Shown here: positions 13,287 to 58,802 of the stretch, piece after piece
Layout of the letters: each line of letters opens with the position of its first letter
Numbering within the stretch: the stretch's first letter is position 1
Assembly (NCBI GenBank): GCA_028713895.1
Contig: JAQTNH010000001.1
Location: forward strand, 438,610-502,609
Origin: Candidatus Nanoarchaeia archaeon
Lineage (GTDB): Archaea > Nanobdellota > Nanobdellia > CSSed11-243R1
Direction of reading: 5' to 3'
DNA: 64,000 nucleotides
The notes under the pieces: model-generated
Told to the model about the DNA's origin: nothing
What the model saw: only the letters and a program-made list of their open reading frames with translations
Database searches by the model: none
Position numbers and translations under genes: made by a program

Positions 13287-13288
13287 AG

Positions 13289-13362
13289 TGGCCCAGGAGA
13301 GATTTGAACTCTCGACCCCGCGATTATCAGTCGCGTGCACCACCAGGCTATGCTACTGGGCC
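13289..13362 (-). tRNA. tRNA-Ile (anticodon GAU), no intron
   Basis: The reverse complement is GGCCCAGTAGCATAGCCTGGTGGTGCACGCGACTGATAATCGCGGGGTCGAGAGTTCAAATCTCTCCTGGGCCA. It folds as a clean cloverleaf with anticodon loop CTGATAA. CCA is not encoded. Confidence 0.9.
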
Positions 13363-25496: not shown

Positions 25497-25518
25497 AGGC
25501 GATTTGCTATACTATTCT

Positions 25519-25790
25519 GGGCCCATAGCTGGAGGGTTAGCTGTCCTCTGTTACTGCAAATCAGCTTCACGGCAGGGTGAGCGCAAGGGCGGCTTAGGGA
25601 GATATGAGTCAAGCTCAGGATGTATCTGCGAAGCCATGCCCTAAGGGATGTATTATTCTTTGAACCGGGTCAGGCCAGGAATGGAGCAGCCCTAATGAGC
25701 GTAATGCGTGCTCTTTGGATACATGGTGGAGAAAAGTTTTGAGGACTGCTTATGTCTTTTTATTCCCACCTTGGGCGCGGGTCCGCTATA
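25519..25790 (+). ncRNA. Signal recognition particle RNA (7S RNA)
   Basis: The helix-8 signature gggtcaggccaggaatggagcagcc is at about 25676-25692. The 5' GGGCCC pairs with the 3' GGGTCC. Length is about 270 nt, with its own promoter. Confidence 0.8.
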
Positions 25791-29260: not shown

Positions 29261-29380
29261 GGGTCTATGGCCTAACGGCATGGCGTCCGCTTGACGGAGC
29301 CTTTCTTTTGCGAAAAGAAACGCTCGCGAAAGAAAACTTCAAATTGCGGGAGGTTTCCGGTTCGAATCCGGATAGGCCCA
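29261..29380 (+). tRNA. tRNA-Val (GAC) with a 48-nt canonical 37/38 intron
   Basis: GGGTCTA...TCCGC-TTGACG|intron 29297-29344|T-GCGGG-AGGTT-TCCGG-TTCGAAT-CCGGA-TAGGCCC-A. BHB support: central helix TTGA (nt 32-35) pairs with TCAA (29339-29342), flanked by 3-nt bulges. Confidence 0.88.
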
Positions 29381-50308: not shown

Positions 50309-51593
50309 CGGAATATTAAAAAAAGCAGAAGAGAATCATGTAGACGCCTCGATAAGCATAGGCAAAGAAAAAGTACTTTCTTTTGAATACAACCGCGACA
50401 AGCTGAAAGGCAGCACAGAAGGGAACACATCGCTTCTCGAGATAAGGCTTTCCAAGGGAAAGAAGTACGGGTTCTCGACAACAACGCTCGTGAACAACTG
50501 GGAAAGATGCTTTGACAGGGCGCTGAAAATAATGCGGGTTTCAAAGCCGATAAAACACGATATAATACTTGCAGAGCCCAAGAAGCTAAAGCCAGCAGAA
50601 GGGATTTACTCCAAAACAGTCGCTGAAATGCCTGTTGAAAAACTTTTTGACAAAGCAGAAGATGCTGTTGCAGAAGCCAAAAGTGTTAAAAAAGAGATTC
50701 TAGTAATCTCGGGAAAGTTCTCTAGGGAAGAAGAAGAAACACTCTTTGCGAATTCAAACGGCGTGACTGCCGCAGACAAGAGCACAACACTCTCAGGAAG
50801 CATTGAATGCGGGCTTGGAACTGCAGTCGGACTGGATGGGAAATCGTCGCATTCAGACATTAATTTCATAAAAACAGGAAAAAGCGCAGGGCAGATGTGC
50901 ATTGACTGCCTGAACCCAAAACCAATAAAGACAATGAGAACAGGGCTGATTCTTGACTACTTCGCAGCCTCTGACCTGATAAATGCGGCGCTGGTGCCAG
51001 CAGTGCTTTCGGAAAATGTCCAGAACAAACGAAGCTATCTTTCAGGCAAGCTCGGAAGAAAAGTTTTCGCTGACAGCATTACCATTTATGATGACGGATT
51101 GCTTGCAAAAGGATTAAACTCAGGGAGGATAGATGGCGAGGGAAGCCCGTCGCAGCGCACAGAAATAATCTCAAAAGGAGTTTTGAAAAATTATCTTTAT
51201 GACCTGTACTCTGCAAAAATTGACAAGAAAAAGACGACAGGAAACAGCAGTTCAATCGCGAAGGTTCCGTCAGTCGGAGTTTCAAACTTTGTGATGAAGC
51301 CCGGCAGGTACAGCAGGGAAGAAATCATCAGGGAAACAAAAAACGGAATCCTTGCCGAGTTCTTGATGGGAACGCACTTTGTGAACTCAGTCACAGGAGA
51401 CGCCTCGGTCGGAGTTTCAAACGCTTTCTATGTTGAGGATGGAGAAATAAAGCACCCCATCAAACAGGCGATGATATCGCTGAACATCTTTGACGCGCTG
51501 AAAAAGATTGAAATAATAGGGAACAACATGCGACAGGAATCTGATGTAGTGTGCCCGACAATCAAGCTTGAAGGTGTGCAGATTGTTGCATGA
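50289..51593 (+). CDS. pmbA: PmbA/TldE-family protein
   Basis: Colinear with the TldD fold but lacks HExxxH. It overlaps tldD by 20 nt. The start is TTG/GTG at 50289-50292. Confidence 0.75.
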   Translation: MVEKVISGILKKAEENHVDASISIGKEKVLSFEYNRDKLKGSTEGNTSLLEIRLSKGKKYGFSTTTLVNNWERCFDRALKIMRVSKPIKHDIILAEPKKLKPAEGIYSKTVAEMPVEKLFDKAEDAVAEAKSVKKEILVISGKFSREEEETLFANSNGVTAADKSTTLSGSIECGLGTAVGLDGKSSHSDINFIKTGKSAGQMCIDCLNPKPIKTMRTGLILDYFAASDLINAALVPAVLSENVQNKRSYLSGKLGRKVFADSITIYDDGLLAKGLNSGRIDGEGSPSQRTEIISKGVLKNYLYDLYSAKIDKKKTTGNSSSIAKVPSVGVSNFVMKPGRYSREEIIRETKNGILAEFLMGTHFVNSVTGDASVGVSNAFYVEDGEIKHPIKQAMISLNIFDALKKIEIIGNNMRQESDVVCPTIKLEGVQIVA

Positions 51594-52917
51594 GAAAACA
51601 TTCGAAAAGTTGTGCAAACTCAAGGCAATAGAGTATTACAAGATGTATGCCGGCCTGAGTTATGATGAGTCAAAAATCAAATCCTGCTCTACAGCTATTT
51701 CGAAACTTTCAAAATCTATTTTGGACAGCAGGGAAGAAGTTCCAGAACGGATAAAGTACTGGCTTATTGACAATGCCGCGTCCAGGGATGTAGAAAAATA
51801 TTTCATGAAGCAGATAAAGATACGCTCAAAATTCAGATGCGGAAATGTAGACTACGCCAGCTGGAGAAGCTGGCTGCCCAGTTCAAAGCCAGAAGAACGA
51901 AAAAAGGTATTTGACTATTTTGTTAAAGAATCAAAAAAGTTAAGCCCATTGATACAAAAATGGTTTAATGTATACAGCGATTCGTACAGGAGATACGACT
52001 GCGATGTCCTTGGGTCATACTTTGATACGCAAAAAATAAAAATGAATTCTCTTGTAAGACTGCTTAAAACGCTTGGCAGAGAGGGAAGACATGCTTTTGA
52101 CAGCGGAGAGATTGAAAGCGTTGTCGGACACCCGCTGAAGTATTATGATGAATACTACTATCTGGGCTCGAAGCTAAGGCTGGGAGTCCAGCTCAAACTG
52201 GATACATTGCCTTCGATAAAAAAGATATTTTCCGATATGGGCTTTGATTTTGACAAAGTCAGAATAGACTCAGCCAACAGGAAAAAGAAGTTTGGGTATG
52301 GCTACTGTATCTCACCCAACCCCCCAGAGGATGTAAGGGTGGTTTACCGCTCAGTCGGGGGGCTAAAGGAAACTGAAGTTGTCTACCATGAGTTCGGGCA
52401 TGCGATGCAGGGAATTTCCATGACAGGCTCGTTCTTCAAGAAAGAGGTAATCGGCAGCAGCATCAATGAAATATTTTCAATGTTTTTTGAGAGCCTTATC
52501 TCGAACAGACAGTATCTTGGCGAGAAAGGAATTGCGAACCCGGACGAGATAGTCCACAGGGAGAAACTGGCGAACAAGCTTTTCTTTGCAGGCTATGCAG
52601 CAAACTCCTTTTTGAACCTCAAATTCTTGAGCGGGGGCATAAAGTTCAACGAAATGGATGAAACTTACGGCGAGCTCCTGAAAAAGTACACAGGGATAGA
52701 GACTCCAGGAGGGTACTGGAAGCTGCATCACATACTCTCCGAATTCCTGATATACAGCCCAAGCTACATGATTTCGCATGTGAGAGCAGGCGGATTAAAC
52801 AAGCTGATGACAGCCAAATTTGGAGACTGGTGGAAAAGCAAAGAAGCAGGCAATCACCTCAAGCGCATAATGGCAGATGCAGAAGACATAAAACTAAGCG
52901 AATTTTCTTCGATATGA
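51568..52917 (+). CDS. Zinc metallopeptidase, M3/oligoendopeptidase-like
   Basis: VVYHEFGHAMQG (HExxH) about two thirds into the protein. The start is uncertain: TTG 51568, GTG 51574 or ATG 51643. Confidence 0.6.
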   Translation: MKVCRLLHEKTFEKLCKLKAIEYYKMYAGLSYDESKIKSCSTAISKLSKSILDSREEVPERIKYWLIDNAASRDVEKYFMKQIKIRSKFRCGNVDYASWRSWLPSSKPEERKKVFDYFVKESKKLSPLIQKWFNVYSDSYRRYDCDVLGSYFDTQKIKMNSLVRLLKTLGREGRHAFDSGEIESVVGHPLKYYDEYYYLGSKLRLGVQLKLDTLPSIKKIFSDMGFDFDKVRIDSANRKKKFGYGYCISPNPPEDVRVVYRSVGGLKETEVVYHEFGHAMQGISMTGSFFKKEVIGSSINEIFSMFFESLISNRQYLGEKGIANPDEIVHREKLANKLFFAGYAANSFLNLKFLSGGIKFNEMDETYGELLKKYTGIETPGGYWKLHHILSEFLIYSPSYMISHVRAGGLNKLMTAKFGDWWKSKEAGNHLKRIMADAEDIKLSEFSSI

Positions 52918-52979
52918 TGCACTGTATTATAAGCTGATTACAAAACTTTTTAAGTATAGACTCATCCTATAATAACATC

Positions 52980-53546
52980 ATGCGAGGTGGAGAATTTAAG
53001 CTGTATCCTTTGTCCCCAATCGAGCAGGGGTATCTTTTTGGTTTATTTGAAGGAGACGGATACAAATTATGGGACAAAAATAGTAGACATTATCAGGTTG
53101 AATTTTACCTTAACTCAGTTAACGATACAAAAACAATCAATTTTCTTGTTAGTTTGCTTAGAAAGATAGGACTAAAGCCCGGGCTATATCAAGACAAACG
53201 ATTCAATTGCAAGCGAATCAGAGTATACTCTAAAGAATTTTTTGGAATTATAAACAAAAATGAAGATATAACTTACAGAACAAAACAGTTTAACATAGGT
53301 TTTGTTTCTGGTATGATAGACTCTGAGGGTTATGTAAATAAAAAAAAGTCGTATATAACAATTGTAAATACCAATAAAACAGTTTTGAAGCGCATTTTGA
53401 CTTTTTTAGAGTCAATACATCTAAAATCAACGTTAACTAAGCGAAAAAGATGTATTAGAGATAAATTGGATTCTTATAGAATGTACATTTCAGTTAGTTT
53501 TAAAAAGCTACAAAATATCTCAATAAAATGTAGAGTACTTCAATAG
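52980..53546 (+). CDS. Free-standing double-motif LAGLIDADG endonuclease-like protein
   Basis: Motifs YLFGLFEGDGY and FVSGMIDSEGYV. The TAG stop (53544-53546) overlaps nucleotides 1-2 of the following tRNA. Confidence 0.75.
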   Translation: MRGGEFKLYPLSPIEQGYLFGLFEGDGYKLWDKNSRHYQVEFYLNSVNDTKTINFLVSLLRKIGLKPGLYQDKRFNCKRIRVYSKEFFGIINKNEDITYRTKQFNIGFVSGMIDSEGYVNKKKSYITIVNTNKTVLKRILTFLESIHLKSTLTKRKRCIRDKLDSYRMYISVSFKKLQNISIKCRVLQ

Positions 53547-53714
53547 CGAGGTAGATTCTTGTCGGATAAACAAGGAGCCTTAAGCAGCCTGGAGTGCTCG
53601 TCGGATTGGACTCGCGAAAGTAAGTCCAAGGCGAAGCTCATAAAGTGCTTAACACTTTTGAGGCAAGCACAATGGGAGACCCGAAGGTCGGCGGTTCAAA
53701 TCCGCTCCTCGCTA
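53545..53714 (+). tRNA. Initiator tRNA-Met (CAU) interrupted by three intervening sequences
   Basis: Removing 53556-53583, 53605-53635 and 53643-53678 yields a 75-nt cloverleaf: AGCGAGG-TA-GAGC-AGCCTGGAGT-GCTC-G-TCGGG-CTCATAA-CCCGA-AGGTC-GGCGG-TTCAAAT-CCGCT-CCTCGCT-A. It has the A1:U72 pair and three consecutive G:C pairs at 29-31:39-41, the archaeal initiator hallmarks. Confidence 0.75.
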
Positions 53715-53722
53715 TTTTTTTT
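53715..53722 (+). terminator. Oligo-T terminator after the initiator tRNA
   Basis: A run of eight T directly after the discriminator base. Confidence 0.5.
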
Positions 53723-53953
53723 CTAAAAAATTTCTTCCAAAACTTTTTTCTGAAAAATAAAAATGTATTTAAGCAAGAAACGATTTAGTATTAACATCAA
53801 ACAGAAAAAAAATCATGTTCAACTTCAAAAAAAGTTGGAGGGAATGACTAAAATGGCAAAAAAACATGCAAAGAAAAAATCACACAAGAAGTGATGATTT
53901 AATTCAGAAGAAAAAAGAGTGCGTGGTTTTCGGTGTTCTTGCGCCCCTTTTCT

Positions 53954-54892
53954 TCACATTTTTATAATCTTTACAAATTCTCCGATGTTCTTTGAAACAA
54001 AATCACGCGTTTTCTTGCTGAGCTCGTTTGAAACAAAAATTATGCCTGGTTTTTTAAGATGCAGGCACTCCGTGTAAAAAGTTGAAATGTCGCTCTCCGC
54101 AACATTCGCTTTTCCCGAAATTTTGACAAGCAAGTTTTGGGAACCCAATGCGGTTGGAAGGCTTGCTTCGTGGATTGTTTCGCCTTTTTTCCCTTTTGTT
54201 GAAATAATCTCAATCTTTTTTTCTTTCAAATATTCATGAACCTTCCTTTCAAATTCTGAGTCCTGCTTTGGAGCATGTTCCTTGCGAACGCGCTTTGGTT
54301 TGGGAACTTCAACAGTTTCCTGTTTTGGAGGTTCGGAAAATATTGACAGGGGCTTCATTTCCTCGACAGCCTGGGACTGTTGAGCTGTCGGTTGTAGTGT
54401 CTGCTGGACCTCGAGCTGGGTAAGTTCCTGCTTTGGCTCGGTTTTGTGGAGCTTGCTGCTGATTATGCTGTTAAGCTCGTCCTGAGAAACCGAGTAATGC
54501 TTCCATAGCTTCAGCTCCTGTCCGTCGGAATTTATTGTAAGAGCTTCAACAAAATCTTTTAGCTCGCTGACAAGGAAACGCTCCTGGGGATACAATTCTT
54601 CAGTGAATGCGACTTTCAAGTCTCTTATGCGCTCGAGAGCTTTCTTCTCAAGCTCATTAAGCTCCTTGTGAAGGCGCTCACGCACTTTGTTTTCCTGTCC
54701 AGGAACGTAGTATAACGGGGAAGAGCCGATTCGTCTGAAAGACAGCTTAAGGTGCCCGTTTTGTACGAGACCTGAAAGGATTGCTGAAGCAAGATAAATT
54801 TCAGTATTCAGCTGCTTTGCTACTACATTTGGAAGAGTAGGGCCTGACATGCGTACAAGCTGCATTATTTTTTCTTCTTTCTCGTTCAACAT
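53954..54892 (-). CDS. Winged-helix DNA-binding protein with an uncharacterised C-terminal domain
   Basis: The N-terminus KIMQLVRMSGPTLPNVVAKQLNTEIYLASAILSGLVQNGHLKLSFRRIGSSPLYYVPGQE is wHTH-like. The middle is a Q/E/P-rich linker. Confidence 0.5.
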   Translation of the reverse strand: MLNEKEEKIMQLVRMSGPTLPNVVAKQLNTEIYLASAILSGLVQNGHLKLSFRRIGSSPLYYVPGQENKVRERLHKELNELEKKALERIRDLKVAFTEELYPQERFLVSELKDFVEALTINSDGQELKLWKHYSVSQDELNSIISSKLHKTEPKQELTQLEVQQTLQPTAQQSQAVEEMKPLSIFSEPPKQETVEVPKPKRVRKEHAPKQDSEFERKVHEYLKEKKIEIISTKGKKGETIHEASLPTALGSQNLLVKISGKANVAESDISTFYTECLHLKKPGIIFVSNELSKKTRDFVSKNIGEFVKIIKM

Positions 54893-58688: not shown

Positions 58689-58802
58689 TGGGCCTGCCCG
58701 GATTCGAACCGGGGAACTCCCGCGCGCTCAGTTTCTTTCCCAGGGCGTTCTCCTGAGAAAGGCCTTGTGAGGCGGACGTCATAACCACTAGACCACAAGC
58801 CC
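58689..58802 (-). tRNA. tRNA-Val (CAC) with a 41-nt canonical 37/38 intron
   Basis: Reverse complement: GGGCTTG-TG-GTCT-AGTGGTTA-TGAC-G-TCCGC-CTCACA|41-nt intron|C-GCGGG-AGTTC-CCCGG-TTCGAAT-CCGGG-CAGGCCC-A. The BHB central helix CTCA pairs perfectly with TGAG. Confidence 0.88.

Follow-up and report, generated by a model that had tools for sequence, protein, structure and literature searches.

An initiator tRNA gene with three introns, and a LAGLIDADG endonuclease gene linked to the first of them, in a DPANN archaeon

How does the gene for an essential initiator tRNA come to be interrupted several times over, and by what means might its introns have arrived? The question is posed by a locus in Candidatus Nanoarchaeia archaeon (assembly GCA_028713895.1, contig JAQTNH010000001.1), which we have analysed within a stretch of 64,000 nucleotides (nt) referred to here as 'the window'. 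At 53545-53714 of the window lies a gene for initiator tRNA-Met (iMet) that is split by three introns of the bulge–helix–bulge (BHB) type and is abutted, on its 5' side, by a gene for a LAGLIDADG homing endonuclease. We judge it very probable that this is a functional initiator gene with three BHB introns. As a tRNA, it is one more case of a known multi-intron type; its link to the endonuclease is the unexpected part, and the abutting LAGLIDADG gene is the most informative feature of the locus. As judged from the sequences compared, the first intron (I1) and the endonuclease gene constitute a composite element: their presence and absence are linked, and the open reading frame (ORF) begins within a displaced copy of the tRNA 5' exon. 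Taken as a whole, this account—a three-intron iMet gene plus an I1–endonuclease composite element—is in our opinion likely. Other loci are identified below by the letter L and a number.

The initiator tRNA gene and its introns

A preliminary description of this DNA had proposed a 170-nt initiator gene that yields a 75-nt tRNA when three segments are removed. When the exons are joined (53545-53555, 53584-53604, 53636-53642 and 53679-53714), the 75-nt product is indeed called tRNA-Met(CAT) by ARAGORN. It is 61% G+C, against 43% for the window. All of the features listed in that description can be read in it—A1:T72 (A1:U72 in the RNA), G29-G31:C39-C41, the loop CTCATAA, and the T arm GGCGG-TTCAAAT-CCGCT—as can the pair A11:T24. 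A1:U72 and three consecutive G:C pairs at 29-31:39-41 are the marks of archaeal and eukaryotic initiators, and they are likewise present in 119 DPANN orthologues. Compared with uninterrupted DPANN iMet genes, the joined exons agree at 63-71 of the 75 positions. The predicted spliced junctions are GGTAG^AGCAGCC, CGTCGG^GCTCATA and GCTCATA^ACCCGAAG, the last (37/38) continuing ACCCGA; here and below, '^' marks the cut.

Each intron is framed by two 3-nt bulges on opposite strands, with a 4-bp helix (H) between them and the cut behind the second bulge base. For I1, H is AGGT/GCCT, the bulges are AG^A and TA^A, and the inner helix (h') is TTCTTGT/ACAAGGA (7 bp). For the second intron (I2), H is CGTC/GGCG, the bulges are GG^A and AA^G, and h' is TTGGACT/AGTCCAA (7 bp). 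The third (I3) has CTCA/TGGG as H, with TA^A and AG^A as bulges; a 1x2 internal loop sets its inner helix, GTGCTT/AAGCAC, off from the motif. I3 is thus exactly as first described, a 36-nt intron at 37/38 with this central helix, these bulges and this intron helix. The same holds for the 31-nt I2, put at 53605-53635 and 30/31, for which a BHB motif is found and whose exons are contiguous in orthologues that lack it. I1 had been placed at 53556-53583, at 10/11 or 11/12. Its length of 28 nt stands, but BHB geometry moves it by one nucleotide, to 53555-53582 and 10/11, with no change in the spliced product.

BHB scanning, suggested in the preliminary description as a check, used a 4-bp central helix, a 3-nt bulge on each strand, and an inner helix (h') or outer helix (h) of at least 7 bp. 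It returned three matches in the gene—I1, I2, and one that is spurious—where shuffled versions of the gene average 0.31. I3 was recovered after removal of I2: with I1 and I2 taken out, it emerges as TCGGG-CTCA-(TA^A) ... TGGG-(AG^A)-CCCGA, the canonical anticodon-loop motif. Its outer helix is the 5-bp anticodon stem, which is formed only when I2 is gone. In constraint folding of the whole precursor, the I3 motif lies in the minimum-energy structure and the I2 motif costs 1.8 kcal/mol; all three motifs forced together lie 6.4 kcal/mol above the minimum. The tRNA-splicing endonuclease, EndA, would cut such a precursor at each pair of 3-nt bulges, and an RNA ligase would join the exons. I1 and I2 would be cut as self-contained HBh' motifs, each a 4-bp helix plus a 7-bp intron hairpin, and I2 is probably excised before, or independently of, I3, because the outer helix of I3 needs the removal of I2. 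Rfam finds no group I match at the locus, and I1, at 28 nt and with a BHB motif, is not a self-splicing group I intron.

Comparison with syntenic relatives shows where introns have come and gone. The gene downstream of the tRNA (312 aa, 53954-54892, – strand) encodes a protein 100% identical to one from the Candidatus Nanoarchaeia archaeon metagenome-assembled genome (MAG; MDD5182362.1 / MDD5239367.1, locus tag PHC66_04305). Its homologues sit in a conserved order: Hef helicase, Hef nuclease, AMMECR1 or DUF460, the homologue itself, a gap, and PmbA/TldD. The initiator tRNA lies inside that gap in every relative examined, and its intron content varies. L008 and L010 have an intron at 37/38 only, as does L001, in which neither I1 nor I2 is present. 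L004 has introns at 30/31 (31 nt, homologous to I2) and 37/38 (homologous to I3), and no I1. L006 and L007 have an intron at 37/38 and another in the T loop (after TTCAAA). L009 has none at 37/38, and has instead a D-loop intron of ~390 nt encoding a LAGLIDADG_1 protein. I2 is missing from L001 and from L006-L010. The closest relative found, the metagenome contig L132, is 84.7% identical to the window over 1.55 kb upstream; its iMet gene has I2 (identical at 31/31 positions) and I3 (34/36), and lacks I1. I2 and I3 together are therefore identical to L132 at 65 of 67 positions, against 84.7% in the flanking DNA.

In these orthologues the exons are contiguous exactly at the proposed splice sites, and the intron-less state is seen at each of them; AGCG(A/G)GGTAGAGCAGCC, for example, runs uninterrupted across the I1 site in L001, L004 and L132. 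Acceptor pairs covary across the introns (7:66 is G-C or A-T; 5:68 is G-C, A-T or G.T), and h' of I2 differs between the window and L004 by compensatory double changes at two base pairs. Because of this covariation and compensation, and because the introns are better conserved than their flanks, these iMet genes show selection for tRNA function. I2 and I3, being common to related species, are the older introns, and I1 is the newest.

Unspliced, the gene escapes standard detection. ARAGORN does not report it, its sole tRNA in the window being tRNA-Ile at 13288-13362. Rfam, at its gathering threshold, finds four tRNAs and the archaeal signal recognition particle (SRP) RNA in the window and nothing at 53545-53714, and an Rfam E-value scan of 53400-53860 gives chance matches only. 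A window-specific 22-mer from the tRNA 3' end has no match among the GTDB representative genomes. The features of the locus are collected in Table 1.

Table 1. Positions of the initiator tRNA gene, its introns, and the adjoining endonuclease gene in the window
Feature	Position	Strand	Remarks
TATA-like element, CTTTTTAAG	52946-52954	+	25 nt upstream of ATG 52980; promoter role suggested by spacing
LAGLIDADG homing-endonuclease gene	52980-53546	+	188 aa, two motifs; TAG stop overlaps tRNA nt 1-2
Pseudo-5' exon (copy 1), ATGCGAGGTGGAG	52980-52992	+	Start of the ORF
tRNA-iMet(CAU) gene	53545-53714	+	170 nt; four exons, three introns
Exon 1, AGCGAGGTAG	53545-53554	+	nt 1-10
Intron I1	53555-53582	+	28 nt; 10/11, D stem; HBh' motif
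Exon 2	53583-53604	+	nt 11-30; D arm and 5' strand of anticodon stem
Intron I2	53605-53635	+	31 nt; 30/31, anticodon stem; HBh' motif
Exon 3, GCTCATA	53636-53642	+	nt 31-37; includes CAT anticodon
Intron I3	53643-53678	+	36 nt; canonical 37/38
Exon 4	53679-53714	+	nt 38-73; discriminator A at end, CCA not encoded
Likely archaeal terminator	53715-53722	+	Eight-T run right behind the discriminator, also in L132; role suggested by position

The endonuclease gene and its link to the first intron

The protein encoded upstream of the tRNA carries two LAGLIDADG motifs, LFGLFEGDGY and GFVSGMIDSEGY, and matches the Pfam families LAGLIDADG_3 (2.5e-14) and Hom_end (2.8e-11). An AlphaFold2 (AF2) model from 35 family members has a confidence (pLDDT) of 90.3 and contains the alpha-beta-beta-alpha-beta-beta-alpha fold twice. 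In a Foldseek search against the PDB the top 34 matches are all I-DmoI, the best with E 3e-11, TM-score 0.67 and 25% identity; the link to I-DmoI comes from this fold search only, since phmmer against the PDB sequences gives no match. Across the 35-member alignment, mean column identity is ~58%. G25, G27, D114 and G117 are invariant; D26 and E116, the two putative catalytic acidic residues, are nearly so and count as conserved. The ORF is of the monomeric type and freestanding: no intron or intein encloses it, and it precedes the tRNA, with its last base at tRNA nt 2. By tblastn and protein search, the family comprises at least 93 sequence clusters from DPANN metagenomes, at 43-66% identity. 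Thirty-six of the 93 begin with MRG(R/G)E-like residues encoded by tRNA-derived sequence, and 40 carry K-(A/V)-G within the final 14 residues, the in-frame product of the tRNA-like AAAGCGGGG. The exact protein is on record from Logan assemblies only and is not in the NCBI annotation of the MAG, so public annotation apparently lacks the gene.

The beginning of this ORF is a displaced piece of the tRNA. Copy 1 corresponds to tRNA nt 1-12 with one inserted T, which changes AG to ATG, and with A9 changed to G. In L132, which is without both I1 and the endonuclease ORF, a TATA-like box stands ~24 nt before tRNA +1, and GATTACAAAACTTTTTAA is conserved between this locus and the window. Relative to the promoter, copy 1 occupies the spot of the tRNA's own start in L132, and the real 5' exon (copy 2) and I1 lie behind the ORF. 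Copy 1 with the inserted T is found also in L105, L044, L134 and L136, and L137 has an exact copy, AGCGGGGTGGAG, ahead of the ATG.

The genomic surroundings of eight family members were inspected (those of the window, L044, L105 and L134-L138), and all eight abut a tRNA-iMet gene with a short BHB-type intron, at 7/8, 10/11, 14/15 or 15/16. Where ORF and tRNA are on the same strand, a copy of tRNA nt 1-12 stands at the start of the ORF in six cases of seven, and the copy always ends at nt 12. The neighbouring genes vary (peptidase, RNase HII, PCNA or Cdc6); because they differ, we conclude that the ORF moves together with the tRNA and not as part of the neighbourhood. The junctions between ORF and tRNA are, moreover, conserved at the nucleotide level across different reading frames.

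Empty sites complete the picture. At more than 50 GTDB loci, rnhB (the gene for RNase HII) lies near iMet with neither an endonuclease nor a 5' intron, separated by 44-180 nt where coordinates were checked; five such sites are filled. The association of endonuclease and 5' intron in the GTDB set is significant (Fisher p = 0.002). In L016 and L028 the endonuclease is gone, but a 10/11 intron and the final codons of the ORF are still there, a state that looks decayed. An 818-nt gap between rnhB and the tRNA in L049 contains no endonuclease remnant. Three states can thus be told apart: filled, with endonuclease and intron; empty, with neither; and decayed, with the intron and the tail of the ORF.

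Two features just upstream of the tRNA may be recorded here. TATA-like TTTTTAAAG boxes end 22-25 nt before tRNA nt 1 in L001, L004, L006, L007, L009, L010 and L132, which suggests that transcripts of these iMet genes start at or near the mature 5' end. In Nanoarchaeum equitans, which is without RNase P, tRNA transcripts start in just this way. The sequence TCCAG(A/T)T stands immediately 5' of tRNA +1 in L105, L134, L135, L044, L016, L028, L049 and L013; the window has CTTCAAT. It marks alleles with a present or past cassette, its frame differs by locus, and CTGGAG in the D loop is its complement. As a BHB strand for cleavage at the 5' end it found no consistent partner strand, and we discarded the idea.

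Homing as a possible explanation, and its alternatives

How could such an element arise and spread? We propose that the captured tRNA promoter drives a leaderless mRNA for the endonuclease, with the mutated 5'-exon copy supplying its start codon. The enzyme would cut iMet genes that have no intron in the conserved D arm, at about nt 12/13, the putative target being the uninterrupted D-arm sequence AGCGAGGTAGAGCAGCCTGGAGTGCTCG, within the intron-less gene AGCGAGGTAGAGCAGCCTGGAGTGCTCGTCGG. Repair would then copy in the cassette together with a replacement 5' exon and a short BHB intron. The carrier allele would be immune, because the short intron splits the recognition sequence. The cassette has a constant junction, at nt 12/13, and intron positions range from 7/8 to 15/16. 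We lean, somewhat, towards this reading of I1 and the endonuclease in terms of homing and immunity. For the wider proposition, that BHB tRNA introns are gained and spread by homing, with an I-DmoI-like family targeting the iMet D arm and inserting at nt 12/13, we would put the chances at about even. If this is true, non-canonical archaeal tRNA introns would gain their first demonstrated means of mobility, and collaborative homing an archaeal, non-ribozyme counterpart; the linked endonuclease offers, in any event, a testable mechanism for the gain of tRNA introns. The open-access literature that we searched contains no description of such an element.

Several observations weigh against the account as a whole. 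The I1 motif costs 5.9 kcal/mol in constraint folding, owing to competition between its central helix and the acceptor stem. A tblastn search of the window with an approximate Methanocaldococcus jannaschii EndA query produced noise only; by this weak test, the 64 kb contain no gene for EndA, ligase or RNase P. The search for iMet genes was confined to these 64 kb of a 956-kb contig, and a second initiator gene is possible elsewhere. The intron can persist on its own, as is shown by four alleles that have it at 10/11 and have no endonuclease. The ORF of L138 converges on the 3' end of the tRNA rather than lying upstream, and copy 1 cannot be made out in L135. The window has no TATA-like box 22-25 nt ahead of tRNA +1; the nearest, at 53498-53507, ends 37 nt upstream and is inside the endonuclease ORF. 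And the association between intron and endonuclease could stem from common descent and loss rather than from mobility.

What else might the locus be? It could be a decaying pseudogene, or a set of chance tRNA-like fragments, with introns that are never removed and an intact initiator gene elsewhere. The lack of any call by standard tools would fit, as would the partial 5'-exon copies at this locus and in L134, L105 and L138. We nevertheless think a pseudogene very improbable: its four exons are intact and form a perfect cloverleaf; among orthologues, stem pairs covary although introns lie between their two strands; a correctly phased 4-bp helix and two 3-nt bulges are found in each insertion; the conservation of I2 and I3 greatly exceeds that of their flanks; a likely terminator follows; and this is the sole iMet gene at the syntenic position in every relative examined. 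It is hardly more probable that copy 1 (52980-52992) is the true 5' exon, and that everything from ~52993 to 53582/53583 is one large, ORF-containing BHB intron of the kind known from archaeal rRNA genes and from L009. The T inserted in the window, L105, L044, L134 and L136 (ATGCG...) would break the acceptor pairing, A1:U72 included, and the bulge of copy 1 lacks an adjoining inner helix, whereas copy 2 has an adjacent 7-bp h' and pairs perfectly with the 3' acceptor strand. These points outweigh, in our view, the facts that an insertion counted from copy 1 ends at the 3' splice site of I1 and can be placed at 11/12, that relatives do have ORF-containing BHB introns in iMet (in the D loop of L009 and at 37/38 of L017 and L076), and that copy 1 is exact in L137.

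A subtler alternative accepts both genes and denies the connection. The endonuclease and I1 would be neighbours by descent, the enzyme being inactive, domesticated or directed at another target, and I1 would have been gained otherwise, for example by transposition of the Thermoproteales type. The four intron-only alleles favour this, and so do intron families common to different tRNAs (29261-29380 of the window; iMet 37/38 of L006 and L001), which point to a spread of some introns that is independent of the endonuclease. Yet all eight members inspected abut an iMet gene with an intron at nt 7-16, where the base rate is ~5% (6/119); the ORF is always with the tRNA while the neighbourhoods (peptidase, rnhB, PCNA, Cdc6) differ; the junctions are conserved in nucleotides and not in frame; the catalytic residues are conserved across 35 members; and the final ORF codons survive in the intron-only loci L016 and L028. 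Mere neighbourhood is possible, then, and we regard it as rather unlikely; the composite element, with homing as its tentative explanation, is the reading that we carry forward.

Introns in other initiator tRNAs, and comparison with known systems

To place the gene among its relatives, GTDB species genomes were searched with a 21-mer from exon 2 (Y at two positions), and the loci were then classed by spliced alignment. The degenerate 21-mer occurs in at least 119 stretches, nearly all of them DPANN (Woese-, Pace-, Aenigmat-, Iain- and Nanoarchaeota). Seventy-two loci are uninterrupted, 20 have a 37/38 intron only, and six have an intron in the 5' part; three low-scoring loci were left unclassified. 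Ten calls of multiple introns were inspected by eye and discarded as false, owing to a divergent 3' acceptor strand (L014, L091, L101, L105, L110, L117, L120 and L127) or to divergence at the 5' end (L039 and L068). L049 (Aenigmatarchaeota NC_groundwater_903; 2041 to ~2279, + strand) has three introns, at 10/11 (30 nt), 37/38 (81 nt) and in the T loop (~44 nt). Another locus, L138 (Aenigmarchaeota GCA_014728985.1, WJKS01000053.1; 1776-1923, – strand), has four, at 14/15, 29/30, 37/38 and 45/46. This is above the maximum of three per tRNA given for Thermoproteales (PMC4033280), and so exceeds the figure quoted in reviews. The preliminary description had held that three introns in an initiator tRNA would be notable. 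They are: the phenomenon is a real one in DPANN, and this gene stands at its far end, although L049, with three introns, and L138, with four, show that it has equals. In many DPANN archaea, up to three or four introns are evidently tolerated in this essential tRNA.

Other peculiarities came to light in the same survey. T-loop introns (after TTCAAA) accompany the 37/38 intron in L006 (5796-5987, –), L007 (3847-4038, –) and L036. The protein encoded by the D-loop intron of L009 (3342-3785, –) is a LAGLIDADG_1 protein of 121 aa. The 37/38 introns of L017 and L076, 639 and 693 nt long, contain LAGLIDADG-like ..AFWDDEG.. sequence; those of L034 and L083, ~285 nt, have a coding capacity of ~89 aa with no Pfam match, and the pattern DRIG..FIEFK in them is nuclease-like by eye. 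C33 (GGCCCATAACC), in place of the near-universal U33, is present in many DPANN iMet genes (L105, L120, L127, L134-L137 and others).

The window holds a second hidden tRNA gene, for a class II tRNA-Leu(CAA) at 57968-57812 (–), missed by both ARAGORN and Rfam. Its introns are 30 nt at 30/31, with the motif GGCA(AG^A)...TGCC(AA^A), and 42 nt at 37/38 or 38/39, where the motif is loose; ARAGORN calls the joined exons tRNA-Leu. Sequence comparison among I1, I2, I3 and the tRNA-Leu introns revealed no convincing relationship. A sequence family, GCCTTTCTTT...GAAAGAAA, recurs in anticodon-region introns of the window (29261-29380, +; 58689-58802, –) and in the 37/38 introns of L001, L006 and L008 iMet, and suggests that one intron family has spread among tRNA genes, as in Thermoproteales. 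The archaeal SRP RNA at 25517-25786 (+) scores 96.7 bits against an Rfam gathering threshold of 96.5. That default tRNA finders miss such genes, two of them in 64 kb, has consequences for estimates of tRNA complement and genome completeness in these lineages.

Of the genes near the iMet gene, that for an M32/M3-like metallopeptidase (51568-52917, +) sits between PmbA and the tRNA, and is present in L132 as well. In this position L008 and L007 have an ORF of similar size, with a weak M3 match and no Pfam match, respectively; L001, L004 and L006 have none. Between the tRNA and the 312-aa gene is a tiny Lys-rich ORF, MAKKHAKKKSHKK (followed by a stop; 53853-53894, +), preceded by the Shine–Dalgarno-like GTTGGAGGGA; it is conserved in L001 (6939-7001, –), L006, L007 and L008.

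How does this locus compare with systems already described? The multiple-intron tRNA genes of the Thermoproteales were reportedly the subject of studies by Sugahara et al. in 2007/2008, and the preliminary description had remarked that multi-intron tRNAs are known mainly from such crenarchaea. The present gene is like these in the multiplicity of its introns; the likeness does not extend to the host, which is a DPANN Nanoarchaeia MAG and not a crenarchaeon. As in Thermoproteales (PMC4033280, PMC4090602), splicing would be by EndA, and related introns are found across different tRNAs. The hosts there are crenarchaeal, whereas the relatives here are Woese-, Pace- and Aenigmat-archaeota. The Thermoproteales enzyme is an (alpha-beta)2 EndA with a Crenarchaea-specific loop; according to passages of Kaneta et al. 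2018 (PMC5829648), an alpha4 enzyme with an L3 loop is likely here. A further difference is that one of the introns here is physically linked to a homing-endonuclease gene.

The same passages of Kaneta et al. 2018 (PMC5829648) report that tRNA genes are disrupted more often in Woese-, Pace- and related archaea, with which an EndA with an extra loop is associated, and take the incomplete predicted tRNA sets of DPANN to mean that there are unidentified disrupted tRNA genes. This iMet gene and the tRNA-Leu gene of the window are examples of the hidden genes inferred there. Those passages contain nothing on this gene, on multi-intron initiators or on a link to an endonuclease (PMC5829648).

The endonuclease itself resembles, in its modelled structure, I-DmoI, which has the same monomeric two-motif LAGLIDADG fold, an archaeal host, and a BHB intron of a stable-RNA gene as its setting. 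I-DmoI is encoded inside an rRNA BHB intron; the present gene is freestanding, upstream of a tRNA intron, with an ORF that begins in a displaced copy of the 5' exon. Archaeal group I introns, where surveyed, occur in rRNA genes only (PMC6125680). A further parallel comes from phage, where collaborative homing is established for group I introns (PMC3984707). In psbA/F-CphI and T4 mobE (PMC3984707, PMC2790892), as here, a freestanding endonuclease gene lies beside an ORF-less intron in a conserved gene. There the endonuclease target is also the site of the intron, which thereby confers immunity; here intron and endonuclease are linked in presence and absence. And there the intron is a ribozyme; here it is a BHB intron, spliced by protein, whose 5' exon has been duplicated and replaced and whose tRNA promoter has apparently been captured by the endonuclease gene.

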